DNA of 64,000 bases, from the IMG/VR virus record IMGVR_UViG_3300042483_000604; one strand, 5' to 3'. The position numbers were made by a program, and so were the translations under genes. The notes beneath the pieces are model-generated. The model ran no database searches, was not told the origin of the DNA, and saw nothing but the letters and a program-made list of their open reading frames with translations. Each line of letters begins with the position of its first letter. Positions within the stretch are counted from its first letter, which is position 1. This DNA comes from a virus (Duplodnaviria > Heunggongvirae > Uroviricota > Caudoviricetes). This document shows, in pieces, positions 213-56,087 of the stretch.

Positions 213-1304
213 TTAGTTATGTCCTGTTCCGTTTGCGTCTCCTAATACTAGTAGGTAGTAATTGGCTGCTGTTGTATTGTTGATGTTAGCTGATAAGAAC
301 GTAGCTACCCCTGGAATTGTTGCTGATAAACTTGTTGTAGCTGCTGCAATTTGAGTGTATTGAGCTTCTGTAAAGAATAAGATATCAGGATTGTTTGGGT
401 AAGCTGTTAGACCTTGAGCCAATCTAGAGAATAATGTATATGAATCTGAAATTGTAATTCCATTTGCTTGGTTAGGGTTAGCAGTATAGAATTGAATTCC
501 AGTTGGTGTTTGTAATCCTGTAGCAATTTGAGCCATCATATCAGCATCTGCTGCAGATAAAGCTGCTGGAGCTGTAATACCTGGATTTACTTTTACTCTA
601 ATTTGCCAGTAGTTTTGATCTAAGTTAGTTGTGAATTCTGCTACTCCTGTTGAAGCCGCTGTATTAACAGTCATTACATCTACCCAAGTTGTTCCGTTTG
701 AAGATTTTTGTAATACAACCGGTATATCTGAAGCTGGGTTAGTTGGGCTGTTTAAGAATGTAGCAGCATATTCAAATACGGGTTCTGTGAACGCACCTCC
801 GTAGTTATGTAATCCTAATGTTGTATCAGTTCCATTTGCTAGGGTACCATAAGCAGGATAAGCTGTTGCTCCTGAGAATGACATAGTAGTTACAGCTCCA
901 TTAGTATAACCTGCTTTAAATGGTAAAGCTATATTGAACATTGCTCCGTCAGCAATATTGAAAGCAACATCTGCTCCGGTGTAAACCCATGTAACTGTTA
1001 CATTTCCTTCAGTAGCGTTTACTAATGTTTGGAAGTAACTGTTTGTTTCGGTCCCAGTGTATGTTACTGTCGGAGAAGCAAATACGTTTTTGTCGTACCA
1101 AAATCTGTACTGTAATGCTTTGATAGCTGTAGAACCAGCGTTATCATAGTAAATTGCAACGTTTGTAGGTGTTGCTCCAATTGGTGCTAGGTTGTAACTA
1201 GCGTCAAATATCAAGTAAGGCTTAGTAGCATCAGGTGCGGTAGTTTGTGCAAATCCTGTTAATGATACTAAAACTACACCTAATACTAAAAGTAATTTTT
1301 TCAT
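213..1304 (-). CDS. Secreted protein with cohesin-like, CnaB/Ig-like and dockerin-like domains
   Basis: Signal peptide MKKLLLVLGVVLVSLTGFAQ; cohesin-like beta sandwich (IKALQYRFWYDKNVF); C-terminal SAADADMMAQ...ANPNQANGITISDSY resembles a Bacteroidota dockerin-like Ca-binding repeat. Confidence 0.6.
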   Translation of the reverse strand: MKKLLLVLGVVLVSLTGFAQTTAPDATKPYLIFDASYNLAPIGATPTNVAIYYDNAGSTAIKALQYRFWYDKNVFASPTVTYTGTETNSYFQTLVNATEGNVTVTWVYTGADVAFNIADGAMFNIALPFKAGYTNGAVTTMSFSGATAYPAYGTLANGTDTTLGLHNYGGAFTEPVFEYAATFLNSPTNPASDIPVVLQKSSNGTTWVDVMTVNTAASTGVAEFTTNLDQNYWQIRVKVNPGITAPAALSAADADMMAQIATGLQTPTGIQFYTANPNQANGITISDSYTLFSRLAQGLTAYPNNPDILFFTEAQYTQIAAATTSLSATIPGVATFLSANINNTTAANYYLLVLGDANGTGHN

Positions 1305-1365
1305 TTCTTTTGTTTTTAAGTTATTTTTATTTCACAACCTGGTGCTTATGCACTCTCATACCTTT

Positions 1366-1373
1366 TATAAATA
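1366..1373 (-). promoter_or_regulatory. TATTTATA candidate phage promoter box
   Basis: Recurrent intergenic motif upstream of minus-strand starts; here upstream of the 213..1304 ORF. Confidence 0.45.
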
Positions 1374-1382
1374 GTCGCAACT

Positions 1383-2384
1383 TTAGTTGCTATATCCTAA
1401 TCTTGTTATATAGTAACTCGAAACTCCTCCTGATATAGGATTGTTTATTGTTACTGATTGTACCCCTGGGATTGTTGTTTTTAAGTTTAATGCACTTCCA
1501 CTAATTGAACTCCATTGGGATGATGTAAATATCCTACTATCAGGAGGTGATGCTGCAAACGAGTTTATTAATCCATTTCTTCTAGCAAATATTGTGTAAG
1601 TATCTGATATTGTTACTCTACCGTCATTATTAACATCAAATCTAAAAAAGTCTCTACTTCTTAAAGCTAGTGTTCCTAAAGTTACATTATTTGAAATCTG
1701 TGCATCACTTACTTGTAATGTAGGTAAAGTTGGAGGAGTAAATGTTATGTAGTATTCTATAGAAGGATTTGTTGGTGTTGAAAATACATATCTTCCTGTA
1801 GCATCTGTTGTCGCTGTTGTTACTAAAGCCCAAGGAGTAAAAGTTACTACATAATCAAATTCTATCACATATGGAAGTGCTTGATTATTAGGTAAATCAT
1901 TCCATCTACCTGCTCCTACAAATTGAACATAATCTTCATTACCTGCGTTATTAGGTTCACCTGGATTCCATGATTGATAAGAATAGGGTTCTCCTGTTAC
2001 CCATCTCCATTGACCCTCGACTGCTTCATCTGTTAATCCTATCCATCCTGAAGGCCATAGGTTGAATAAAAAGTTATTTTCAGCTGCTGATGTTACAGTT
2101 ACTAAATAACCTCCCATATTGGCACATGCCTGTCTTGCATCTGTCCAGAAAGCACTTCCAGTTGATCTGTAATAGGAATGTCCGTTATAGTTTTGTTGAG
2201 ATGTAAATCCTGTCAAAGTAGGTGTTGTTCTACTATACAACTGTACTTGTACACCCGGTATTCCTACAGCGTTTGATCCGTAGATATAACCGGAGTGCGT
2301 AAAGGTTTGACCGTACGTAGATAGAATACCCCCTAGTATTAGTAGAGGGTATAACATTTTTACTATTTTGGCTAGTATATTCAT
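1383..2384 (-). CDS. Secreted C-type lectin domain protein with C-terminal dockerin-like domain
   Basis: CTLD motifs (YNGHSYY...W..A...C...GGYLVTV...EN..L...WIGL.D...EG.W.W..GE...Y..W..GEPNN.G.EDYV...WND); FDVNNDGRVTISD EF-hand/dockerin loop; hydrophobic leader LYPLLILGGILSTYGQ. Start placed at ATG 2384, just after the TATTTATA box at 2389-2396, rather than 2429. Confidence 0.75.
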   Translation of the reverse strand: MNILAKIVKMLYPLLILGGILSTYGQTFTHSGYIYGSNAVGIPGVQVQLYSRTTPTLTGFTSQQNYNGHSYYRSTGSAFWTDARQACANMGGYLVTVTSAAENNFLFNLWPSGWIGLTDEAVEGQWRWVTGEPYSYQSWNPGEPNNAGNEDYVQFVGAGRWNDLPNNQALPYVIEFDYVVTFTPWALVTTATTDATGRYVFSTPTNPSIEYYITFTPPTLPTLQVSDAQISNNVTLGTLALRSRDFFRFDVNNDGRVTISDTYTIFARRNGLINSFAASPPDSRIFTSSQWSSISGSALNLKTTIPGVQSVTINNPISGGVSSYYITRLGYSN

Positions 2385-2397
2385 TTCATATAAATAG

Positions 2398-2853
2398 CTA
2401 TTCTTCTGTGATCTCTGCTCGGTTTCCATCTACTGCAATTTCATGCCAGTGAACTCTTCCTTCTTGAATTGCTTTTTTAATATTCTTTTGTTTTCCCATT
2501 AGAAATGCATTTCCTGATTTTACTTCAATGAAATGTACTTCGCATTTAGTTTTACTTTCTGTGTTGGTAAACCCTACATAGTCAATTGGCATTCCAAGGA
2601 ATACTACATCTTCTGCTGGTATAGGGAACTTTGTCATAAAAGGTACAAAGTGTTCAATTGTCTTACCCCAATTAACTGCTGAAGATCTAAATGTAGAATC
2701 TTTCTTTACTTTTGCTTTCTCAATTATATGAGCTGCTGCTGTTTCTTCAATTTGTTTTCTCAACTGTGCTACCTCTTGTACATACTCTCTCAGTTTTACA
2801 GTTAGTAGAAAAATTACAGTTGCTAGGAATAGTGAAATAAATAATTGTATCAT
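2398..2853 (-). CDS. Membrane-anchored Holliday-junction-resolvase-like PD-(D/E)XK endonuclease (Endonuc_Holl-like)
   Basis: N-terminal TM helix plus coiled coil, then FLGMPIDYVGF...VHFIEVKSG...KNIKKAIQEGRVHW. Confidence 0.65.
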   Translation of the reverse strand: MIQLFISLFLATVIFLLTVKLREYVQEVAQLRKQIEETAAAHIIEKAKVKKDSTFRSSAVNWGKTIEHFVPFMTKFPIPAEDVVFLGMPIDYVGFTNTESKTKCEVHFIEVKSGNAFLMGKQKNIKKAIQEGRVHWHEIAVDGNRAEITEE

Positions 2854-2865
2854 ATTTTTTTAATT

Positions 2866-4575
2866 TTATCCATCACAGCTTAAACAGTCTTCAGAAGTTC
2901 TACTTCCGATATCTCCGTTTATGACAGAATCAGTTCTTAGATAATATAACGTTTTTAATCCAAGTTTCCAAGCTGTCTGGTGAACAAGGTTTATGAACTT
3001 AGGACTATCACTTGGATCGAATGCTAAATTTAATGATTGAGCCTGGTCTACGTACTTCTGTCTTACTGAAGCTTGTTCTACTAAAGCTAGTTGGTTTATT
3101 TCTGCAAATGTTAAGAATACTTCTTTATCTTCAAACGGCATAATGTCTTCAGGTAGATTTGCAATTGATCCTCTATCCTTTAAAATCTGTTGCCATACCT
3201 CTTCTGTATTGTGTCCTTTGTCTTCTAAATACTTTTCTAATACTGGATTCTTTCTAATGAAAGTTCCTTTAGATGAATTGAAAGTATAAACGTTAGCTGG
3301 AATTGGTTCAATACCTGCCGATACTCCTCCTGAGATTGTTGAGTTGGAAACTGTTGGAGCAATTGCAATTAAATGCGTATTTCTCATTCCTGTTCCTTTA
3401 CACCAGATTGGTTCCCCATACTCTTCAGCTAACTTTCTAGAAGCAGCTTCTGCTTGTGTTTTAATTTGAGAGAATATTCTGTTTGTCCAAGAAGTAGATG
3501 CAATTGAATTAAATGGTAATCCTTTTGATTGTAAGAATGAATGCCATCCTAAAACTCCTAATCCTAATGCTCTTCCTTTTTTAGCAGAACGGTGTGCTCT
3601 AATCATAGAGTCCTTACCATTTGTCTTAACTAAGAATTCTTCTAGTACTCCATCTAAGAAGTAGATTGCTGTCTCAACTAAGTCAGTATCTTTCCACTCA
3701 TCGTATCTTGTTAAGTTCAAAGAAGATAAACAACAAACAAATGAATGCTCTTCATCGGTATGTAATGCAATCTCCGAACAGATATTAGTCATTGTAACAT
3801 CTAAGTTATTCTTTACGTATGCCTGAGGGTTAGCGTTGTTAACATTATCTTTAAACATAATATAAGGCTCTCCTGTCTCAACTCTTGATTTAAGAATCTC
3901 AACCCATAGTTCCATTGCTTCTGGATCTCTATGCTCTAATCTCTGCATAAATTTATCATCAATAGAAACACATTGGTGTAAATTTAAACACTGACGGTTT
4001 GGATCTCCTTGAGGTCTTCTAATACGTAAAAACTCTTTTATATCTTCGTGATTGATATCTAAGTTCACAGAAGCTGCTCCTCTACGAACTGATCCTTGAT
4101 TTGTAGCAATGATAGTTGAATCATAAATCTTAGCCCAAGGCACAATTCCTTCTGAGTTACCAGTATCGCCATTTGCGATCTTTTTTCCTCTTCCTCTAAC
4201 TCTTCCTAATCCAATTCCTACTCCTCCTCCTAAAGAGGTAAGTCTCATCAGTTCTGCATTGGTTAATCCTATACCTCTGATTGAATCAGGAGTATCTATA
4301 CCGAAACATGAGATTGGTAATCCTTTGTCAGTTCCAGTGTTTGATAGTACTGGTGAAGCTAGGTTTAACCAACCCTTCCACATATACTTGAAAAACTTAT
4401 TTGCTAGATCAGGACGATCTAATCTTTTAGCTACTGCATCAGCAACTCTTCTGTATGCTTTCTTTGGATTTTCATCAGGTAATAAGTACCCGTTTGAAAT
4501 TGTTGCCAAAGATACTTCATTCATCCATTCTGGATAATCTACACCTGGTTTCCAGGTACTGTAATCTACTCCCAT
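2866..4575 (-). CDS. nrdA: Class I ribonucleotide reductase alpha subunit (no ATP cone)
   Basis: PISCF, TNICSEI (N-x-C-x-E), VCCLSSLN, TLYYLR, C-terminal CLSCDG. Confidence 0.97.
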   Translation of the reverse strand: MGVDYSTWKPGVDYPEWMNEVSLATISNGYLLPDENPKKAYRRVADAVAKRLDRPDLANKFFKYMWKGWLNLASPVLSNTGTDKGLPISCFGIDTPDSIRGIGLTNAELMRLTSLGGGVGIGLGRVRGRGKKIANGDTGNSEGIVPWAKIYDSTIIATNQGSVRRGAASVNLDINHEDIKEFLRIRRPQGDPNRQCLNLHQCVSIDDKFMQRLEHRDPEAMELWVEILKSRVETGEPYIMFKDNVNNANPQAYVKNNLDVTMTNICSEIALHTDEEHSFVCCLSSLNLTRYDEWKDTDLVETAIYFLDGVLEEFLVKTNGKDSMIRAHRSAKKGRALGLGVLGWHSFLQSKGLPFNSIASTSWTNRIFSQIKTQAEAASRKLAEEYGEPIWCKGTGMRNTHLIAIAPTVSNSTISGGVSAGIEPIPANVYTFNSSKGTFIRKNPVLEKYLEDKGHNTEEVWQQILKDRGSIANLPEDIMPFEDKEVFLTFAEINQLALVEQASVRQKYVDQAQSLNLAFDPSDSPKFINLVHQTAWKLGLKTLYYLRTDSVINGDIGSRTSEDCLSCDG

Positions 4576-4584
4576 AAAATTAAA

Positions 4585-5562
4585 TTAAAATGCGTTGTCC
4601 CAATCCATATGCCCTTTGGCATAATTCGTTACTCTTGATGCAAAGAAATCTGTATGCTGTTTACCTGCTACTACAGCATCAAACCATAACATTTGTTTCA
4701 AAGCTCCTTTATCGATTTGATCTGAAGGTATTAATGGTTTTAATCCTAAATCTCCCATCTTAGTGTTTACTCTGTGTTTAATAAAGTTTTTAAGGTCGTT
4801 TTTAGATAAGTTCTCTAAATCTCCCATTTCAAATACTTTATCAATAAAATTGAATTCTAATTCTAAAGCAAGCGTTGCCGCTTCTCTAATATCGTTAATA
4901 AGTCTTTCTGTTTTTAATTCTGGATATTCTTCCATTAAGGTTCTGAATAACCAACAACCTGCTTCTGAGTGAAGTGATTCATCTCTTACAGACCATTCTA
5001 CTATTTGCCCTACTCCTTTTAATTTGTTTCTCATTTTAAATGATAACAATACTGCAAAAGAAGAGAATAGATTTACTCCTTCAGTAAATGCTGAGAATAT
5101 AGCAAGTGATCTAGCTGCTTCATGCCAATCTGTTTCTCCTGCATTTCCATCTCTAACATCCATTAAAGATTGAATTTTAGCTGCAGTTGATTCATCTTCT
5201 AAGAATTCTGCAAAATTATCTAATCCTAATTGCTCGTTTAGTAAAGCATATGCTTCGGCATGGATTGTTTCGAAAGCTCCAAACGTAACTGCCATCATAA
5301 TAACTTCCGGTTTTCTAAACCATTTTGTTACTAAAGATGTCCAGTAATCATTTACAACTGTCTCTGTTTGAGCAAACCCTTTTAGGATTCCTCCTATAAG
5401 GTTTTTTTCGTGCGGTTTAAGGTTTGAATTCCAATCTGTTACGTCCTGTGACATTGGAACTTCTGTATGTAACCAGTGCGCTTGGTGCGCTTTAAGCCAG
5501 TAATCGTGTGCTTGTGGGTATTCAAATGGTTTGTAAACTATGCGTTCGTCTTTTAGACTCAT
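4585..5562 (-). CDS. nrdB: Class I ribonucleotide reductase beta subunit
   Basis: Metal ligands ETIH, EGVNLFSSF, RDESLH; radical Tyr in HAEAY; TDFFASRVTNY C-terminus. Confidence 0.97.
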   Translation of the reverse strand: MSLKDERIVYKPFEYPQAHDYWLKAHQAHWLHTEVPMSQDVTDWNSNLKPHEKNLIGGILKGFAQTETVVNDYWTSLVTKWFRKPEVIMMAVTFGAFETIHAEAYALLNEQLGLDNFAEFLEDESTAAKIQSLMDVRDGNAGETDWHEAARSLAIFSAFTEGVNLFSSFAVLLSFKMRNKLKGVGQIVEWSVRDESLHSEAGCWLFRTLMEEYPELKTERLINDIREAATLALELEFNFIDKVFEMGDLENLSKNDLKNFIKHRVNTKMGDLGLKPLIPSDQIDKGALKQMLWFDAVVAGKQHTDFFASRVTNYAKGHMDWDNAF

Positions 5563-5615: not shown

Positions 5616-6968
5616 CTAGCTTGGAACTTGAGACTCTAATTCGAAGAACTTATTAGCAATATCTTTGTAACTTCCTCTTGGTTTGTCTCCTGATTCGTCT
5701 ATTAACATGTGACCTAATATCTCAATATGTCCATTATTTGTATCAACTTTTGCATCCCAAGTCATACCGTCCATTCCGTATCTGTTCTTCATAACGTGAA
5801 TTCTTCCTGTGCCTAAAACCTTATCTTCTTTCATTCTTGATAAAGATAAACATACATCGGCAACCATCATCTTATCGTAAGAACCTGCTGCTTTATCTCC
5901 TTCAATAACTGAATCCTTAGCACCCATTCTATTAACTTGAGATGGTGTTAGAATAGGTATTTGTAGTTCCTTAGCTAGTCCTTTTGTTGCAATAAATACA
6001 TCATCAATTTCATCTTTTCTCTCTGTGAAACGAGATTTTGAAGGTGCTTTTAGGTAATCGACATAGTCAATAACAATCATATCCGGTTTATGATCCATAT
6101 CGATACATTTCTGGATATGAGATTTAATTGTGTTAATTGAAGCTCCTTTTGGTGGATACTCTTTTACAATAAGTTTTCCTTTCAATTTACCTACAATCTT
6201 CTCAACTTCTCCTCTATGTTTATTTACTTCTTCAATTCCATATCCTGTAAAGTAACAGTCAAAACGTTTACCTACATAATCCTCTCCAAGCTCTAAAGTA
6301 TAGTAATTTACATTGTAACCTAGTAGTACTGCATGTGCTGCAGCTGCAACCATCGTCCAAGATTTACCTCCTCCAGGATTTCCAAACATAATAACTAAAT
6401 CTCCAGGTCCGAATCCTCCTCCAATAGTCTCATTCATAATCGGCCAAGGTGTTGGAATAGTTGGTCTATAGTTTTCTCTATAACGACTCTCTACATCTTT
6501 ATTATACTCATGACCCATATTCTTATCCATACCAGCTCTCATAGCTCTTTCAATCAATCCTCTAATACCGTCAAAGTCTCCTTGGTTTAAAAGATCTGCT
6601 GAGTTTAATAATGCTGCTTTAAGTTCCTGGTTTTTGGCAAAGGTAGTAAATTCCTCTACAACGTATGCTAAATCTTCTTGAGTTGCTTCATAACAATTTC
6701 TCAATTCTGATTTAACTGCTACTTGTAAAATATCATTCTCTACTTTCTGTAATTCGATTTTTAATGCTTCTAATGAAATTGTAGTATGATATTTGTCGTA
6801 ATACTTAATTGTAGTTTCTAGAATCCATTTATGTGCATCTGAATCGAAGTAATCTGGCCTTAACAAATCTCTTGTGTTAAGTAGAAATTTCTTGTCTGTT
6901 AATAATGCTCCTAATACTTTTAACTGGAATCCTTTTCCGTAGGAAGATAATTTTGCTAATGATGTCAT
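5616..6968 (-). CDS. Replicative DnaB/T4 gp41-like helicase
   Basis: Walker A GNPGGGKS, YTLEL, IVIDYVDYL, SQVNR, KNRYG. Confidence 0.92.
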   Translation of the reverse strand: MTSLAKLSSYGKGFQLKVLGALLTDKKFLLNTRDLLRPDYFDSDAHKWILETTIKYYDKYHTTISLEALKIELQKVENDILQVAVKSELRNCYEATQEDLAYVVEEFTTFAKNQELKAALLNSADLLNQGDFDGIRGLIERAMRAGMDKNMGHEYNKDVESRYRENYRPTIPTPWPIMNETIGGGFGPGDLVIMFGNPGGGKSWTMVAAAAHAVLLGYNVNYYTLELGEDYVGKRFDCYFTGYGIEEVNKHRGEVEKIVGKLKGKLIVKEYPPKGASINTIKSHIQKCIDMDHKPDMIVIDYVDYLKAPSKSRFTERKDEIDDVFIATKGLAKELQIPILTPSQVNRMGAKDSVIEGDKAAGSYDKMMVADVCLSLSRMKEDKVLGTGRIHVMKNRYGMDGMTWDAKVDTNNGHIEILGHMLIDESGDKPRGSYKDIANKFFELESQVPS

Positions 6969-6988
6969 GTAACTTATTTTATTATAAC

Positions 6989-8011
6989 TTATTTTTTATA
7001 TGTTGAAAGCGGTCTGAATAATTCAAGCCATCCCTCAACGTTTTTGTTTAGAGCTTCGATTTGATCTGCCTCTAACATGTTTAAAAAAGTAACAGCCTGT
7101 AATGCCGGTGTTGGCTCTTTTATCTTATCTAATATATGAACTATTTCGTAATCTCCCAACCTTGGCTGTAAAAGATTCATCAATTCATAGTTAGTTTTTA
7201 CCTTTTCCCATTCATATATGATTTTTGCAAAAACTTTCTTATCCTGTAATCCTTTTTCACAAACTTCATAAATATCTTCTAAAGAAAAGCCCGGTTTGTT
7301 TACTAATCCCGGAAATTCTTTTATAAGTGTTTTAGGGCCTAATCCTTTTATTCCTGTAAGGTTATCTGAGTTATCACCTAAAAGTGCTTTCATTATTAGA
7401 TAATTCTCAGGAATCATACCTATTTCTTCCAGTACCTCTTTTTTTCCATAGGTTTTTTTCTTGATAGGGGAATAAACTTCTATATTTTCGTCCACTATTT
7501 GTAAAAAATCCTTATCAGAAGAAACGATTGTTACCTTTTTATTATTAGCTCCAAACTTCTGAGCTAGATAAGATATAGTATCATCTGCTTCTATTTTGTC
7601 TATAGAGATTAAGTTGATAGGAAGACATTGTAAGTACTCTACTAGTCTATGCATTTGCATAGTCATTGATGCGTACTCATCTTCTTTATCATCGAACAGT
7701 TCCCAATTGGTAATCCTTTTAATATTTCTATTTGCTTTATATTCAGGATCAATATTCTTTCTACTTGAGGAAGAAGCTTGTCCGTCAAACACACAAATGA
7801 TTCTAGTAGGGTCAATTGTTCTCATCAAAAACCCTAACGATCTCAAGAAACCAACAAGACCACCGGTGTGATGGCCTTGGGGATTCATTGATTGTAGCAT
7901 TGCAAAAGACCTTATAAAGGTGTTCATGCTGTCTACTATTAAAACATGGTCGTTTAGTTTTCTGTCTGGTTTTTGTTCGATTTTATTTAGTATATCTAAA
8001 TAATTACTCAT
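6989..8011 (-). CDS. 5'-3' exonuclease / flap endonuclease (T4 RNase H-like)
   Basis: LIVDSMN, VFDG, YKANR, EADD, SSDKDFLQ, LGDNSDNLTGIKGLGPKT (H3TH). Confidence 0.93.
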   Translation of the reverse strand: MSNYLDILNKIEQKPDRKLNDHVLIVDSMNTFIRSFAMLQSMNPQGHHTGGLVGFLRSLGFLMRTIDPTRIICVFDGQASSSSRKNIDPEYKANRNIKRITNWELFDDKEDEYASMTMQMHRLVEYLQCLPINLISIDKIEADDTISYLAQKFGANNKKVTIVSSDKDFLQIVDENIEVYSPIKKKTYGKKEVLEEIGMIPENYLIMKALLGDNSDNLTGIKGLGPKTLIKEFPGLVNKPGFSLEDIYEVCEKGLQDKKVFAKIIYEWEKVKTNYELMNLLQPRLGDYEIVHILDKIKEPTPALQAVTFLNMLEADQIEALNKNVEGWLELFRPLSTYKK

Positions 8012-9083
8012 CGATCATCTCTATATCAGTTCTAACATCTTCTCCTACTTCAGCTTCAATTGTTACTGTAAAGTCTGTTGACCCTAAAGTATTAGCCCAA
8101 GATCCTTTATGTGCATCTTTATATGCATCAATTGCTTTCTTATCGTCAGCAATAAATCCATGGCTTGTCATAATGATTGCTCCTCTAGACTGTATTCCAT
8201 CGATATGATTCTTTTCTATCTGAACTTTTGTTCTTTTAGCAAATTCATATTCCTTTCCTTTGTTTACAGCTTTGATTTTAGAAGTACCTGAGTTGGTAAT
8301 GTTTCCAAATGTAATGATAACTGTTGCGTCATACCACATTGTCTTTCCTCCTTTATTCTCCAATCGAGGTTGACCCATTGGATGTTCAGGTTTTGCAGTC
8401 CAGACTTTGTTAATAGCTACTAAAGTGTTTGTATACTTACTAGCTTCTTTTCTTGATAACATAATTTTTTGATTTACGTTATTTCCGAATTGAGTAGACA
8501 TTGCTCCAGCATTCCATTCATTATTATTCTTATTTGATCTTACTGATAAATCACTTGGAACTGATCCAACTGAATCCCATAAGAACAATAGGTCATAAGG
8601 TAGGTTTCCTTTCTTTTGTTCATCTACTAAGTCTAGAATGTATTCTGCTACATCTTCAATAGTGTTTAAGGTACCTCTATCAGCATATAAGAAAAATCCT
8701 TTGTAGTCAGTAATCTCTCCTGTATCCTCATCGAATATTTCCTCTACTTCTAATCCCATCATTTGAGCATGTGGCCATGACCATTTCATCTCTGTAATAA
8801 TGAATACTGGAAGTACTCGTCTTTTCTGAGCATTAACTGCTGCTTCTAAAAGTAAAGTAGTTTTTCCTGTATCAGAATGTCCTCTTAGTAACGTAATATG
8901 CCCCATAGGAATTCCTTTAAGGGATGTTACTTCTGTGAAAGCATCTGAGACTTTAATCCAGTCTTGAGATTTAAACTTTACTGAGGTATTTGAAAATCCT
9001 TTATTTTTTTTGAAGTTGTCAAGACTAAAACCGCCTTTGATTATTTCGCTAGCGGTTTTTGCTGTTTCTTTTTTAACTGCCAT
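8004..9083 (-). CDS. RecA/UvsX-like recombinase
   Basis: Walker A GHSDTGKT, Walker B LFLWDSVG, GGK..WY, KVQIEKNH. Confidence 0.88.
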   Translation of the reverse strand: MAVKKETAKTASEIIKGGFSLDNFKKNKGFSNTSVKFKSQDWIKVSDAFTEVTSLKGIPMGHITLLRGHSDTGKTTLLLEAAVNAQKRRVLPVFIITEMKWSWPHAQMMGLEVEEIFDEDTGEITDYKGFFLYADRGTLNTIEDVAEYILDLVDEQKKGNLPYDLLFLWDSVGSVPSDLSVRSNKNNNEWNAGAMSTQFGNNVNQKIMLSRKEASKYTNTLVAINKVWTAKPEHPMGQPRLENKGGKTMWYDATVIITFGNITNSGTSKIKAVNKGKEYEFAKRTKVQIEKNHIDGIQSRGAIIMTSHGFIADDKKAIDAYKDAHKGSWANTLGSTDFTVTIEAEVGEDVRTDIEMIDE

Positions 9084-9085
9084 TC

Positions 9086-9937
9086 TTAGTTGAATAATTC
9101 GTCAAATTTATTTACTGTACTTTTGTTACCCTCTACTGCTGTTTCTAAAGTAAAGTCAGTTTTGTTACTTCCTAAAGCTTTGTCTAAGTCAGTTGGTTCT
9201 GCAGCTGCTGGAGCTGGAGCTACTGGTGCAATTGATTCTGCTGGAATGTTTGCTGGTGAAGCTACTTCTTCTCCTGGGTTCAAGTACTCTTGTAATTTTT
9301 TCTTGATGAATTCATAGTCGTACTGAGTTTGTACTTCTAAGGCATTTGGTTGTTCTTTTAACCATAAATCAACTTGTGTATTATCATCTGATAATGGAGT
9401 TTGTTTAGGTTTAATACGAACTGTAGTTGTTGGGAATTGACCTGGTCCTGCTGCTGGTGTGTTTTCAACAACCATATCCCATCCATTGATTACATCTGTG
9501 AAGTCTCCAATGTCTTCATCTTCTGCTAAAGCAAGTAATGCTTTGTAGATGTTAACTCCGAATGACCAAAGACGTACTCCTTTATCTTCTTCACCTCTTA
9601 CAATAACAGGAGCAAAAAATCTTGACTTAGGAGATAACTTTCCAGATAATGACCAGTTGTCTTTATCAGAAGTCTTTCTTAATTCTTTTACAAATTCTTC
9701 GATTGGATCTTGTTTGCCGTAATTCGACAATGACATCATAGGGAACTTTCCTATGTTGTAGTGTAGTTTCAATTCTGTGAAAGGATCTGCAGCGTTAAAT
9801 GCTGAAGGAACTATTCTAATTGTTGATTTTCCGTTTGCAGGTCTCCAATAGATTTTGTCGAAGTCTACTTTCTCACGGTCTTGATTTCCGGTGCTGTTTA
9901 GAGCGGCCAGTTTTGCTTTGATAGCATTAATGTCCAT
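9086..9937 (-). CDS. Single-stranded DNA-binding protein (T4 gp32-like)
   Basis: KIYWRP..GKSTIRIVP, PFTELKLHY, GVRLWSFG, DFTDVINGWD, acidic tail ending FDELFN; position next to the recombinase. Confidence 0.82.
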   Translation of the reverse strand: MDINAIKAKLAALNSTGNQDREKVDFDKIYWRPANGKSTIRIVPSAFNAADPFTELKLHYNIGKFPMMSLSNYGKQDPIEEFVKELRKTSDKDNWSLSGKLSPKSRFFAPVIVRGEEDKGVRLWSFGVNIYKALLALAEDEDIGDFTDVINGWDMVVENTPAAGPGQFPTTTVRIKPKQTPLSDDNTQVDLWLKEQPNALEVQTQYDYEFIKKKLQEYLNPGEEVASPANIPAESIAPVAPAPAAAEPTDLDKALGSNKTDFTLETAVEGNKSTVNKFDELFN

Positions 9938-10458: not shown

Positions 10459-10477
10459 TTATAAATATGTTTTTATT

Positions 10478-22014: not shown

Positions 22015-22028
22015 TATAAATATACGAA
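22015..22028 (-). promoter_or_regulatory. TTCGTATATTTATA candidate promoter (extended box)
   Basis: The same 13-mer TTCGTATATTTAT also occurs at 44998-45010 and 45966-45978, each directly downstream of a terminator. Confidence 0.55.
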
Positions 22029-22582: not shown

Positions 22583-22627
22583 TTTATTGTTTACTTATTT
22601 AATTATAAATATCTGTGTTTCTAAATA

Positions 22628-24788: not shown

Positions 24789-24796
24789 TATAAATA
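24789..24796 (-). promoter_or_regulatory. TATTTATA candidate phage promoter box
   Basis: 25 nt upstream of the sheath ATG; another copy at 22604-22611 precedes the tube gene. Confidence 0.5.
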
Positions 24797-24904
24797 TCTT
24801 GGGATTTCGATAACCTTCTTATATGATTAGAGGTTCTATATTCTCTAATAAATAGGAAAGGAGAGTCAAAACCCTCCTTATATTCCTCTTATTTTTTACA
24901 GTAA

Positions 24905-25233: not shown

Positions 25234-25572
25234 TTACAAACTACCTGTTACTGGTGTATTCCAAGGAGCAGCTAAAGTTGCTGTTACTGGATTGTTTATT
25301 AAGTTGATTTGAGAATCAATGTTTGCTTTTATAGCATCCATATCCATTACTGCTTCTAACCACCCTTCTGCTTGTTCTTGAGAAATTTCTAAGAAAGGAG
25401 TAAAGTTTTCCGGGTCAGGAGCTCCTACAGATTGTGCTCCGTAAGTCTCTGCAGATGTTCCATTTTCATCAGTACCTCTATATCTCCAGTGTACTGTTGT
25501 TACTACTTTTTGCATGTCATCTTCGTTTAAGATGCAATCGAATGGACCTACAGTCCAAGTGTAATTTGTCAT
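25234..25572 (-). CDS. Conserved small phage protein (tail-fibre-region family)
   Basis: YTWTV...VVTTVHWRY...FTPFLEISQEQAEGWLE; starts 23 nt downstream of the ribozyme. Confidence 0.65.
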   Translation of the reverse strand: MTNYTWTVGPFDCILNEDDMQKVVTTVHWRYRGTDENGTSAETYGAQSVGAPDPENFTPFLEISQEQAEGWLEAVMDMDAIKANIDSQINLINNPVTATLAAPWNTPVTGSL

Positions 25573-25595
25573 AATCTATTTGTTTTTAATTTGGT

Positions 25596-25842
25596 CATCC
25601 AGAGCCGAAACTCCCAATTTGTTATCTTTATGTTTCCATAAAGTTCGGACTATATCATCACTCTTACAAGTGTCGGGCGCTCTAGCTGGTTATTAAGAGG
25701 ACTTTACCTCTCCAGTAGTCTCTGAACCTTCCTAGGATGTATCCTAAGCTTGGCTGCTGATTTTCCAATCCTCAAGATTGTTACGCTTTGGTACTTGAGG
25801 CTCTAAGGACTTTCCAGCAATTCACCCGATTTAATCTGGACG
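25596..25842 (-). ncRNA. Group I intron-type ribozyme (IA-like core), intergenic, apparently circularly permuted, no homing endonuclease
   Basis: P element GAATTGCTGGAAA; Q element AATCAGCAGCCAAG (25762-25749); R element GTTCAGAGACTA (25727-25716); S element GATATAGTCC (25656-25647). P3 TCGGGTG/CGCCCGA; P4 TTGCTG/CAGCAG; P5a CCTCAAG/CTTGAGG; P6a CTTAGGAT/ATCCTAGG; P7.1 CTGG..GAGG/CCTC..CCAG; P8 CACTT-GTAA-GAGTG; P9 CTTTATG-GAAA-CATAAAG; likely omega-G at 25615. Confidence 0.9.
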
Positions 25843-25850
25843 TTTTGTTA

Positions 25851-26513
25851 TTATAAATATGGTTGTATTAAATTAATATAAAATTCATCTCCTCTACTAT
25901 TAGAAGCTACTGTATATGTTTTTTCACCTGTGTTGCTTATAGTTACCTGTATATCTATAATACCTGCTCCATAATTACTTGATAAGTACTTATCTTCATA
26001 TCCAATAAGACGACCTTTGAAGTCGTAAATAGGGATTCTATCAACAGGTTCTCCTTGAGATTCACTTAAAAGAGTGTAGTTATTTAATCCTGTTTTTGCT
26101 GCTGATGATTTTTCGTACAGCCTATATGCACCTTTATCTACGGTTTGTCGACCTCCGTTACGTCCTCTTTGAGTCATTTTATTTCTAACTGCAAAATATT
26201 TATATGTATTTGTATCTTTTACTACATCTGTTCTCTCTCTAAATACTATATTTGATGCAAGGTTTGCATCTGATATTGCTGATGCACGGTCTTCTCCTGT
26301 TACTACTATTTTGTTACGTGACAAGATTGCATAAGGGAGTGTTACGAATTGATTTGTTCTTGAATCAAATGCCGGAGTTGTTCCGTTTGGATCTCTTAGG
26401 TCGTAGTAAATTACTGCTCTGTCTCTTGTAGTAAATCTACTCTGTACCTCTACTTTTACTTCTGTAGCAGTTCCCCTATTTACTACTGCAAATGCTTGTA
26501 TTTTCTGTATCAT
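25851..26513 (-). CDS. Hypothetical protein
   Basis: Open ORF in the fibre region; no recognisable motif. Confidence 0.55.
   Translation of the reverse strand: MIQKIQAFAVVNRGTATEVKVEVQSRFTTRDRAVIYYDLRDPNGTTPAFDSRTNQFVTLPYAILSRNKIVVTGEDRASAISDANLASNIVFRERTDVVKDTNTYKYFAVRNKMTQRGRNGGRQTVDKGAYRLYEKSSAAKTGLNNYTLLSESQGEPVDRIPIYDFKGRLIGYEDKYLSSNYGAGIIDIQVTISNTGEKTYTVASNSRGDEFYINLIQPYL
25852..25859 (-). promoter_or_regulatory. TATTTATA candidate promoter directly upstream of the ribozyme
   Basis: Overlaps the stop codon of 25851..26513 and lies 9 nt before the first paired nucleotide of the ribozyme. Confidence 0.5.
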
Positions 26514-28470: not shown

Positions 28471-28812
28471 TTATCTTAATTCTTCCATTGGTTTAGTCCA
28501 CTCTTCAGTTGATAATATATGAAGAATTTCTTCATGAGTATACTCTGTATCACCTTCTTGGTAAATATTTGGTCTTCCGTATACCCCTGCTTCTGTAGTA
28601 CATACTTCAGGTTCTCCTGTTTCTGCATTTATAAATTCAGTTTGACATGTAACCGGTACTTCTATAATTTCATACTTAATAAAAGTCTTAGTACCATCTA
28701 CCGATAGTCTTAAACTCTCTGGTGATGATTCTAATACTTGATTGAAATCAATCGATCCTGTTGCTGTGGTTGGTATTATTAACCATCTTCTATTTGGAAA
28801 TTGTGTACTCAT
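28471..28812 (-). CDS. Hypothetical protein
   Basis: ORF with IDFNQVLESSPESLRLSVDGTKTFIKY...YTHEEILHILSTEEW. Confidence 0.6.
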   Translation of the reverse strand: MSTQFPNRRWLIIPTTATGSIDFNQVLESSPESLRLSVDGTKTFIKYEIIEVPVTCQTEFINAETGEPEVCTTEAGVYGRPNIYQEGDTEYTHEEILHILSTEEWTKPMEELR

Positions 28813-28824
28813 ATATAATAAATA

Positions 28825-30093
28825 TTAACTTAAGTTGAATCTTGTTTTATAATGTAAATAATTCTGTCTTAACTCAGATGCTGAAAGTGTTCTGTTGTAG
28901 TGTTTAAATACAGGTATCTCTCCCTGCCATGGACTTCCTCCTAAATCTGCTCCTACCCAGTACCTATCTCCTCCTGTAGGGCTAATTGAATTACTGTGAA
29001 TCGATACATCGTTTCCTACCTTATTTCCATTTACATAAAATGAAATAATATTACTTACCCTATTTACTACAATTGCCATGTGGTAGTACTGTGTTGTTGT
29101 TGTTGCAACAAATCCTCCGTCTTGAAAATGCAAGTACTGGTTACCGCCGTAGTTTAAGAAAAGACATCCCTGTCCTGTACTGTAGTAGTTATGTACCCAT
29201 AGATACCCTGCTAAACTATCTCCCCTAGACTCTAGTAAGCAATGTCCAGAAGTTTTTGACTGCTTCATTACACATTCAAGGGTAAAATTACTAGTACCCA
29301 TTCTATAAGCTGTAGGATTACCTGCTGCAATATAATCATTCGTACCATCGAAAGTCATTTGTGCATTTGAATCAAAAGATACGTTTGTTAGATCTATTGT
29401 TGAATTTCCTACCAATGGTAAAAGTCCTTGTGTTACTGAACGGGTAGTCCCTGATGGTATTATTTGCTTAGGAGGTCTTATTGTACTTCCAGGAGTTATT
29501 GCTATAGCAGCTATTGATACTTTATCTGCTACATTATAGTTATAGTACCATAATCCTGTATATCCTTTAACAGCAGTTCCTCCTACTGTAAATGTATTCC
29601 AAGCATGAAACCATCCATCTCCTAGGGATTCCATTTTATTTGTATCCAATAATCCATACTCTGTTATATATGATTCCCCACTTGTATATTGATAGTGGTA
29701 CATAAAATTAGGATGTGTATATCCTGAACGTGTTTTGAATATAATTTGATAAGTATATGTTTGGCCGGGAGTCCATATGGGACTGTTGAAACCTCCTGTA
29801 TAGTTAAATAAATTAGGGCAGCATGCATTTCCTGAAGCTGAGTTATTAATTTCAATGCTCTGCACATTAACTGTTCCTAATGCTGGTATATTTACAGTTT
29901 CAGCATATCCGTTAGTTTCAAAAAATACACCAGGTGAGTATGTAGTAAGGCTGTATCCGTTATAGTTCCTATTAACTCCTGTTGTTATGTTAGTACCTGG
30001 CTGTCCAATATAACTATTTCTAAAATCTGCTACATCGTAAGCAAACACCGATCCTGATGTGACTGTTTTTCCGTATCCTTGTGCTACTGCCAT
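28825..30093 (-). CDS. LamG/concanavalin A-like domain virion protein
   Basis: FDGTNDY...YYHMAIV...FYVNG...WQGEIPVFKHYNRTLSASELRQNY. Confidence 0.8.
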   Translation of the reverse strand: MAVAQGYGKTVTSGSVFAYDVADFRNSYIGQPGTNITTGVNRNYNGYSLTTYSPGVFFETNGYAETVNIPALGTVNVQSIEINNSASGNACCPNLFNYTGGFNSPIWTPGQTYTYQIIFKTRSGYTHPNFMYHYQYTSGESYITEYGLLDTNKMESLGDGWFHAWNTFTVGGTAVKGYTGLWYYNYNVADKVSIAAIAITPGSTIRPPKQIIPSGTTRSVTQGLLPLVGNSTIDLTNVSFDSNAQMTFDGTNDYIAAGNPTAYRMGTSNFTLECVMKQSKTSGHCLLESRGDSLAGYLWVHNYYSTGQGCLFLNYGGNQYLHFQDGGFVATTTTQYYHMAIVVNRVSNIISFYVNGNKVGNDVSIHSNSISPTGGDRYWVGADLGGSPWQGEIPVFKHYNRTLSASELRQNYLHYKTRFNLS

Positions 30094-38200: not shown

Positions 38201-38793
38201 GTAGTGTCTACTACATCATGTAATTCTCCTAATTCATATCCATTATCAATACGGACATACATTGAACCATTATTAGTCTGTACTCTTAGTACTTGCCCTA
38301 ATCTTACAGCATGTAATGGTGCTACGGGTGCTGTTCCTATTATAGATCCAGCTGCTCCTAAATAAAGTAATTGTCCTGCTGAGAATGCATTTGTGTTTAT
38401 TCCTATTAAGGTACCTTCAGTTATTACATATCCAAAGCTATCATTAGGGATATCTTGATTGGTAATACCTAAAGTGTTAGCTGAAACTGGATCACTTTCA
38501 TATGAGGCTGTTGATATTAAAGCATTATCACCTGTTGCTCCTGATATTCTTACTACTTTTCCTTTGTTGATTTGAGCTCCAGTTACATTTTTAACATATA
38601 TTAAAATGTCTTGAGCATTTTGAGAATTAGATGCTGTTAATGCAAAATTTGCATATGAAGCTGTTACAGCATTTGAAGCAGAAACTGCCCATGAAGCAGT
38701 TCCGAATAAAGAACTTGTTATTCCGTTTGAAACGGTAAGAGAGTTTAAAGCAGCATCTGAGCCGCTAATTATGACTTTTTTCCAACTTGGCAT
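32203..38793 (-). CDS. Long tail fibre (2196 aa) with collagen-like G-X-Y tracts and GNVGIGT repeats
   Basis: Three G-X-Y tracts, repeated GNVGIGTT hinges, C-terminal [31 protein letters not shown] domain. Confidence 0.85.
34960..35385 (-). repeat. Collagen-like 9-bp-periodic repeat tract 3
   Basis: (GATG/GVSG/GPTG/GVIG)n. Confidence 0.85.
36430..36810 (-). repeat. Collagen-like repeat tract 2
   Basis: G-X-Y repeats. Confidence 0.85.
37260..37490 (-). repeat. Collagen-like repeat tract 1
   Basis: G-X-Y repeats. Confidence 0.85.
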
Positions 38794-38862
38794 ATTAAGT
38801 AGTATTATGATTGGTTACAGATTCGTGTCTGCCCACTTCCTTCTCAGGTCTATAATATATAA

Positions 38863-38870
38863 TATAAATA
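38863..38870 (-). promoter_or_regulatory. TATTTATA candidate promoter for the long fibre gene
   Basis: Upstream of a structured leader and the ATG at 38793. Confidence 0.45.
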
Positions 38871-38872
38871 TC

Positions 38873-45952: not shown

Positions 45953-45994
45953 ATTACCGTTTTATATAAATATACGAACTTTTTTTTTACAAAA

Positions 45995-56046: not shown

Positions 56047-56087
56047 ATTATATATGTATATAATATAAATATAGGGATATAAAAAAA

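Follow-up and report, generated by a model that had tools for sequence, protein, structure and literature searches.

What is a complete group I catalytic core doing between two intact genes of a lake phage? The question is raised by a 64,000-nucleotide (nt) stretch of DNA (the window) from a virus of the Caudoviricetes (IMG/VR record IMGVR_UViG_3300042483_000604), in which an element on the minus strand, running from position 25842 to 25596, had been read from its letters alone as a naturally circularly permuted group I ribozyme. We examined this element computationally, together with its homologues in other phages. We are highly confident that the family and its layout are real. As judged from sequence, the element is probably a stand-alone circularly permuted group I ribozyme, which would cut itself in a guanosine-dependent reaction between U25597 and G25596 and so free the downstream message.

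A group I core that interrupts no gene

Scanning the whole window with cmscan returned RF00028, the group I intron model, as the sole family at threshold (96.9 bits against a threshold of 50, E 9e-24; minus strand, 25890..25626), with the match spanning model positions 1-253. The P1-P2 part of the model was placed over the last codons of the upstream open reading frame (ORF; 25851..26513), where it showed mismatches and no U.G pair. When the scan was restricted to 25590-25845, the score was 85.4 bits over model positions 34-253; since this score is reached without the upstream flank, the genuine match is P3-P9. The sequence-only reading had expected an Infernal search to cover P3-P9 only, which proved correct for the restricted region and incorrect for the full window. 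Its claim of a complete IA-like core stands on both scores and on the presence of the P7.1/P7.2 insert.

The insert (25715-25686) folds as a nested helix pair, as is characteristic of subgroup IA, and its inner helix covaries (GC/AU 10:9 at three pairs). Across 19 aligned sequences, covariation is seen in P3, P4, P6a, P7.2, P8, and P9; P7 and the joining segments of the core are invariant. P3-P9, the guanosine pocket in P7, and the P, Q, R, and S elements are all present, and the element contains no ORF. Its closest DNA matches by blastn were conventional phage introns, including that of S-PM2 psbA and those of crAss-like, Acinetobacter, and Pseudomonas phages and Flavobacterium phage immuto.

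The element is thus a member of the group I catalytic family, yet it is not an intron. A group I intron interrupts a gene and rejoins its exons, whereas here the neighbouring genes are complete and unrelated genes precede the element elsewhere. That both flanking ORFs are intact, as originally claimed, was supported for the downstream gene by an alignment of its 112-amino-acid (aa) product, from residue 1, with a complete immuto protein (44% identity).

A P1-like helix joins the two ends of the element

The guide strand, CGUCCAGA (25842-25835), which sits 5 nt ahead of P3, is fully complementary to UCUGGAUG (25603-25596), with a single wobble, G25841.U25597. This helix, which we call H1, closes both the minimum-free-energy and the centroid folds (z = -3.1). 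When the 126 nt downstream were shuffled 20,000 times, a full match of 8 base pairs (bp) arose in 0.6% of cases, and the longest complementary run in the 148 nt upstream of the guide was 4 bp. The end-to-end octamer helix with one U.G, the lack of a local upstream P1, and the UUAAA linker into P3, all proposed previously, were each recovered. H1 has the properties of P1, a guide/substrate helix with a U.G pair at the reaction site, except that the substrate strand lies 3' of the core and not 5'.

Homologues were gathered by pattern scans of viral, metagenome, and genome contigs. The relatives are of two kinds, conventional introns and a permuted class of 27 distinct members, found in uncultured phages and in immuto. 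All 27 of the latter lie between genes, lack P2, lead from the guide through a (U)UAAA linker into P3, and carry the complementary ...GGAU strand behind P9. The order guide, core, terminal G, exon, 5' splice site is conserved throughout, as the proposed permuted intron-exon (PIE) order requires. Among the members are the window, a near-identical contig (L002), immuto (L001; MW353175, about 145,030-145,290), L004, and copies in jumbo phages (L005 and L021); a subgroup lies directly ahead of tail-fibre-like genes (L131, L147, L150, L161, L198, L201, L209, and L229). The conventional relatives, of the same sequence subgroup and found in tRNA (transfer RNA) and protein genes (e.g., L007, L010, L034, and L043), have P1 and P2 hairpins before P3. 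Two intronic relatives, L187 and L129, use the same GUCCA guide and place a UUGGAU exon strand, forming a P1 hairpin, 10 nt upstream.

Within the permuted class, guide positions -7 to -3 are paired in all 27 distinct homologues. Position -3, beside the GUCC core, shows all four Watson-Crick types (AU 11, UA 10, GC 5, CG 1), and position -6 changes from UA to GC in the two jumbo-phage copies. The wobble G.U is kept, in a fixed register, in 26 of the 27. The pair spanning the cut site, which was not used as an anchor for the strand, is formed in 24/27 with five pair types. A tool count on a MAFFT alignment of 19 members gave the same picture of H1 covariation; in that alignment, the core helices, serving as positive controls, were paired in 94.9% of cells, compared with 27-41% for slid partners. 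RNAalifold on the same alignment predicted core helices only and not the long-range H1, so H1 was counted by imposing a named structure. The test of covariation between the 5' octamer and the 3' flank that had been called for thus came out in favour of the helix, and H1 is real.

The family is spread among aquatic phages, whose hosts are probably Bacteroidota, and the genes that precede the element differ from phage to phage. The L002 contig carries a second copy (7118-7422, minus strand) ahead of a 113-aa gene. The corresponding site of the window is empty: the homologue of that gene (77% identity) comes directly after its neighbour, and the 12-nt junction (28812-28825) holds a promoter-like box only, revealing a presence/absence polymorphism.

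A separate observation concerns the genes that lie before the element (window 25851-25890; also L002, L008, L012, L025, L001, and L004). Although otherwise unrelated, they share a C-terminal motif, F/Y-Y/F-x-x-I/L-I/V-x-P/S-Y/F/W-L/V, often followed by P. In tail-fibre regions, the ribozyme and this C-terminal module may move together as a single cassette.

The terminal G and a second long-range helix

The candidate terminal G (omega-G), G25615, has a G at the homologous last-base position in all 27 members, and the conventional relatives end in '...UAACAUG|exon'. The preceding U25617 and U25616 are able to pair with A25644 and A25645 to form P9.0. The equivalent two bases complement the two bases after P7 in 25 of the 27, in three combinations only (AA:UU in 5, AC:GU in 6, and AU:AU in 13). 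The conserved G and the complementarity, in these three states, are consistent with the earlier assignment of omega-G with P9.0.

The segment between omega-G and the wobble U, the 'mini-exon', measures 17-19 nt in 16 homologues and 41-77 nt in nine. As it varies in both length and sequence, a ring made from it is unlikely to be the selected product. In contig L025 (9854-10210, minus strand), an extra copy of a P9-like hairpin (…UUUAUGGAAACAUAAA…) was noted inside the mini-exon, which enlarges it to ~69 nt.

A second helix, H2, joins the terminal-G region to bases 1-6 nt past the wobble U. Examples are AAGUGA/UCACUU, UAAAUGC/GCAUUUA, and UUGAC/GUCAA, and the window has UUGG/CCAA. When only Watson-Crick pairs were counted, members paired with their own partners over a mean of 5.26 bp, compared with 3.60 bp for swapped partners. 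With G-U pairs allowed, the values were 5.8 and 4.5 bp, scarcely above background in A+U-rich RNA, and our conclusion on H2 relies on the Watson-Crick count. H2 includes omega-G in 20/27, and the pair at exon position +1 shows all four types. H1 and H2 cross to form a pseudoknot. In the arrangement that we propose, they could stack end to end and bring the two predicted reaction sites to within about three base pairs; the nick G25614/C25842 would then lie at a point where an ordinary P1 hairpin has no break.

Proposed reaction and the points that weigh against it

We propose that the late-type box serves the element as its own promoter, and that the element would form the 5' leader of a message with two genes. 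The guide strand begins the RNA and, as covariation shows, pairs with the strand 18 nt behind the terminal G, giving a P1 with its U.G. Free guanosine or guanosine triphosphate, bound in the P7 pocket, would attack after U25597 and free the message, which would start with the added G and a 24-nt A-rich leader. H2 would withhold the terminal G from the pocket until this first cut and thereby set the order of steps. H2 would then open, G25615 would dock through P9.0, and the 3'-OH of U25597 would attack after G25615. Two products would result: a ring of 18 nt, and a ribozyme of 228 nt whose guide strand is free and which ends in a G-OH. On the present comparisons, we consider cleavage at the P1 site fairly probable; the second step and the ring are put forward tentatively. 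P1 is sufficient for circularisation in engineered RNAs that have this order of ribozyme, insert, and target site (PMC10457212); in a related engineered design, arms create P9.0 beside the terminal G (PMC11417360).

Several points weigh against this proposal. The 3' strand of H1 was located through its pairing, which leaves the flanking positions and the MAFFT columns as the sole unbiased ones. In a close relative (L030/L032), an A-U pair takes the place of the wobble. P9.0 is one pair short in L047 and L005, and the case for it consists of the three state combinations; H2 and P9.0 also use the same bases and so compete. No convincing P10 pairing was seen, the one-pair version suggested previously (C25842/G25614) included. 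The mini-exon is conserved in neither sequence nor length, which leaves a ring with no conserved content, and an 18-nt ring is, to our knowledge, far below any size reported for permuted group I constructs. Finally, RNA contigs in two metatranscriptome runs (X15 and X19) cross both predicted sites uncut; these could represent precursor RNA or carried-over DNA.

RNA contigs and a link to tRNA-Thr

Four lake metatranscriptome runs were compared as assembled contigs only, which hold no joints or end pile-ups and thus give no information on cleavage or rings. None of the four runs showed contig cover over 25858-26200, which has no bearing on transcription. A contig of run X17 (record 11) stops 3 nt past U25597; it matches the variant of the L030 type and is hence uninformative.

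One contig of run X16 (record 9; 207 nt, depth 5) is identical to window 25780-25615 at 166/166 positions, diverges from the window exactly after G25615, and continues with 41 nt of tRNA-Thr from U33. Thirty of these 41 nt were shown, and by its length the tRNA part would reach about the tRNA 3' end; it lacks three bases of the gene (CCC). This single contig marks G25615 as a junction however it arose. It is either an intron-bearing allele in another strain, which is the simpler explanation, or the product of the terminal G attacking a tRNA. In favour of attack are the identity at 166/166 positions, the length of the loose end, and the absence of an intron from the gene in this phage.

By means of the tRNA-like letters, a tRNA-Thr gene was found in ten related phage contigs (including L357, L365, and L366), and the tRNA array of the phage itself (L367/L372) was reached by exact-protein look-ups. 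Its tRNA-Thr(UGU), on L372, is intron-less in DNA and has the anticodon arm CUGGAU|UUGUAA, in which CUGGAU (tRNA positions 27-32) equals the substrate strand of the window exactly. Moreover, the tails of L018, L004, L021, L030, and L013 resemble tRNA-Thr back to about position 10 (L018 matches at 13/14 bases and L004 has an uninterrupted match of 11 nt; in neither case did more than 6 of 300 shuffles do as well). The tail of the window showed no significant tRNA-Thr similarity beyond CUGGAU. An intron-bearing tRNA-Thr allele was sought in viral contigs, and the window-type 3' tail was present only in L002; none of the ten tRNA-Thr loci has a group I match, nor does the tRNA array of this phage. 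From these sequence likenesses, the family probably descends from an intron after U32 of tRNA-Thr(UGU), whose 5' exon piece now lies behind the intron.

Other features of these arrays were recorded. L372 carries 23 tRNA genes, 22 of them in an array (1165-5126) that also contains an HNH endonuclease gene, and beside it (6800-9489) lies a repair cassette of phosphoesterase, kinase, and RNA ligase. The tRNA-Thr of this phage has an A31/C39 mismatch in the anticodon stem. In the contig L358, from an uncultured phage, a GOLLD RNA (positions 1-321; RF02032, 199.7 bits, cut at the contig end) stands directly before an array of 19 tRNAs.

Genomic setting

The features of the element and its surroundings are collected in Table 1. 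The box ATATTTATA, which the sequence-only reading had named as a candidate promoter 9 nt upstream, is a real motif: on the coding strand it occurs eight times in exact form, and seven of these copies are wholly intergenic, 1-69 nt before ATGs, in a window of which 4% is intergenic. The copies lie almost only in gaps ahead of structural genes, including the sheath gene, and similar boxes precede the homologues. A scan for the sigma-70 consensus gave nothing exceeding shuffles. We infer that ATATTTATA is a phage promoter, probably of the late type on the basis of these positions.

Table 1. Positions of the element, its helices, and the neighbouring features in the window.
Feature	Position	Strand	Evidence or remark
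Promoter-like box ATATTTATA	25852..25860	-	9 nt before the guide; shares bases with the stop codon of ORF 25851..26513
Guide strand (internal guide sequence), 5' strand of H1	25835..25842	-	G25841 is the wobble G
Linker UUAAA, guide directly into P3, no P2	25830..25834	-	19-member alignment
Catalytic core P3-P9 with P7.1/P7.2 insert, subgroup IA type	25626..25829	-	RF00028 score, covariation
P3	25829-25823 with 25679-25673	-	
P7	25720-25716 with 25652-25648	-	
P8	25672-25659	-	
P9	25643-25626	-	
Tail AUAACAAAUUG ending in candidate terminal G (omega-G, 25615)	25615..25625	-	G in 27/27; RNA contig junction
Mini-exon, 18 nt, omega-G to wobble U, small local hairpin	25597..25614	-	Folding, family comparison
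Substrate strand UCUGGAU|G, 3' strand of H1	25596..25603	-	Predicted cut between U25597 and G25596
H2 3' strand CCAAAUU	25588..25594	-	Pairs with 25619-25614 around omega-G
Upstream 220-aa gene, complete, ends ...FYINLIQPYL*	25851..26513	-	Not an exon of the element
112-aa gene, phrog_7802 family	25234..25572	-	24-nt leader would start at the cut site
90-aa gene	25177-24905	-	
Intrinsic terminator closing the unit	24879-24858	-	
Other ATATTTATA copies	10460-10468, 22015-22023, 22604-22612, 24789-24797, 38863-38871, 45965-45973, 56064-56072	-	

Behind the element follow the 112-aa and 90-aa genes, the terminator, and then the next promoter box (24797-24789). This succession makes the ribozyme the leader of a two-gene unit, and the leader left by a cut at 25597/25596 would be about as long as the leaders of the remaining genes driven by the box. 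The element is followed at once by a terminator in immuto, L004, L047, and L048, where the next gene has its own box; re-heading the downstream message is thus not the only role of the family. For the 220-aa and 135-aa proteins, we detected no PHROG family and no similarity to the neighbours of the element in immuto. Elsewhere in the window, the gap between box and start of a 2196-aa gene is unusually long (69 nt; 38793-38863), leaving room for another leader element.

Alternative explanations

Invariant P7 and joining segments, together with a wobble pair held in a fixed register in 26/27 members and a conserved G with its complementary P9.0, all speak against a folded, catalytically idle relic of a tRNA intron. 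Kept as a stable leader or 3' end, such a relic might shield the messages next to it, make ribosomes pause, or serve as a binding site for a protein, and H1 and H2 would only close its fold. The uncut contigs over both sites, the A-U pair of L030/L032, and the unconserved mini-exon would suit it, as would the immuto copy, in which P5 is reduced and the score lies under the Rfam threshold. However, a closing helix needs neither a U.G at a fixed position nor a conserved GUCC/GGAU core, and we regard an idle relic as unlikely. The sequence of steps in the proposed self-cleavage could also differ: hydrolysis after G25615 would come first, and the G-OH would then attack the P1 site, giving a ribozyme-message joint and a linear 18-mer instead of a ring. 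This order needs only the terminal G, P9.0, and P1, and resembles the pathways to full-length intron circles; a free terminal G-OH is also what the ribozyme-tRNA contig requires. Nothing specific speaks in its favour, however, and H2, by sequestering the terminal G in the precursor, favours the step with the guanosine cofactor first, which makes the reverse order very unlikely.

The X16 contig, which runs from the ribozyme to G25615 and on into tRNA-Thr from U33, suggests a different target. The ribozyme could act in trans on tRNA-Thr(UGU), once self-released or else while the cis strand serves as a decoy. Its guide would pair with CUGGAU, and its terminal G would attack at U32/U33, which would cut the anticodon loop and join the ribozyme to the 3' fragment. 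The intron-less tRNA-Thr of this phage (L372; likewise L357, L365, and L366) and the lack of a group I match in its array are in line with such a reaction. It would nevertheless have to be drawn from one contig of one run, whose tRNA part is without the CCC of the gene and which an intron-bearing tRNA-Thr allele elsewhere would equally yield. In addition, 11 of the 27 guides (GUCCU, GUCCC) mismatch tRNA position 28 and the cis strand always compensates, which identifies the cis strand as the conserved partner. No gain to the phage from cutting its own tRNA is obvious either. Judged on these sequences, trans action is quite unlikely, and we hold the same doubt about its extension, in which the ribozyme would be a phage-encoded, RNA-only anticodon nuclease silenced until excision by a tRNA-derived decoy, the cis strand, and the chimera in a single freshwater metatranscriptome would be the trace it left. 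A conventional cis-splicing intron with a 5' splice site further upstream, for instance after UUGGAU at 26005-26000 within ORF 25851..26513, is extremely improbable. It would account for the placing of model positions 1-33 on 25890-25846, worth ~11 bits, and for the one 6-nt guide partner at 26005, although by chance the 760 nt searched would hold ~0.7 such hexamers and the Rfam alignment of P1 is mismatched and has no U.G. With splicing from 26000, the protein would lose its final 49 residues and with them the C-terminal motif common to other phages. After G25615, all three frames reach a stop codon within 14 codons. The helix with the downstream strand covaries, moreover, and the element follows unrelated genes elsewhere.

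Relation to known systems and significance

Among the nearest known relatives of the element are the conventional phage IA introns (T4 td/nrdB/nrdD type; S-PM2 psbA; L007, L010, L034, L043, and L187), which have the same core with P7.1/P7.2 and match the same Rfam model. In blastn, identity reaches ~84% over short core stretches (80.7% for Synechococcus phage S-SRM01 and 77.6% for S-PM2 psbA). The chemistry of the guide strand and the '...UAACA..UG' tail are shared, and L187 and L129 even share the GUCCA guide. These introns sit in genes, carry the P1 5' strand and P2 before P3, and restore the gene by splicing. In contrast, the element interrupts nothing, has no P2, and places the P1 5' strand behind the terminal G. 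The same order of guide, ribozyme, terminal G, insert, and target site ending in U is found in engineered PIE/STS RNAs; these were built by hand from introns of Tetrahymena, Anabaena, or T4 and have inserts of kilobase size, whereas the element is natural, has an insert of 17-77 nt in its family, and is followed by a gene or a terminator after the target site.

A natural permuted intron-exon precursor has been described for the coral ND5-717 intron, which back-splices via a circular exon-containing RNA and which its authors called the first (PMC6545197, Chi et al. 2019). ND5-717, from mushroom-coral mitochondria, is a giant true intron in a protein gene; its permutation comes from transcription of a circular genome, and it yields a functional ND5 message. 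The element, by comparison, is free-standing and compact (~250 nt) and has no coding exon to mend. The lariat-capping ribozyme GIR1 of twin-ribozyme introns is likewise derived from group I, does not splice, has its reaction site 3' of the core and pairings between the 5' and 3' ends, and re-heads a message (discussed in PMC8637638). GIR1 has no P1 or U.G site, and branching gives a 3-nt lariat next to the terminal G; the element retains an ordinary P1 whose U.G lies 17-19 nt or more beyond the G, and RF00028 is the only family at threshold in the window, so that it is not a lariat-capping ribozyme. Among natural bacterial ribozymes, circularly permuted group II introns (Roth et al. 2021, PMC8637638) also stand alone, with their domains in permuted order. 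They abut no ORF and make RNA circles, and they differ from the element in ribozyme class and in chemistry. Our literature searches found no natural permuted group I ribozyme of a phage or bacterium, the free-standing form included.

Immuto can be cultured on Flavobacterium sp. LMO8, which opens these predictions to bench testing. If true, the element would be the natural counterpart of the hand-built designs for circular RNA (PIE and STS), and its family offers compact (~230 nt), P2-less scaffolds with natural 'arms' in the form of H2. If the ribozyme-tRNA chimera arose by trans action, even as a side reaction, it would demonstrate natural activity of the ribozyme and its end at G25615. The connection with tRNA-Thr points to a way in which tRNA introns may give rise to such permutations. 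Group I ribozymes are the textbook introns. A conserved, free-standing, permuted form with its own promoter would, if true, mean that phages have re-used the enzyme beyond the mending of genes; its candidate uses are to cut a message at one set position, giving it a 5' end derived from GTP, to release a small RNA ring, or to supply a trans-active ribozyme.

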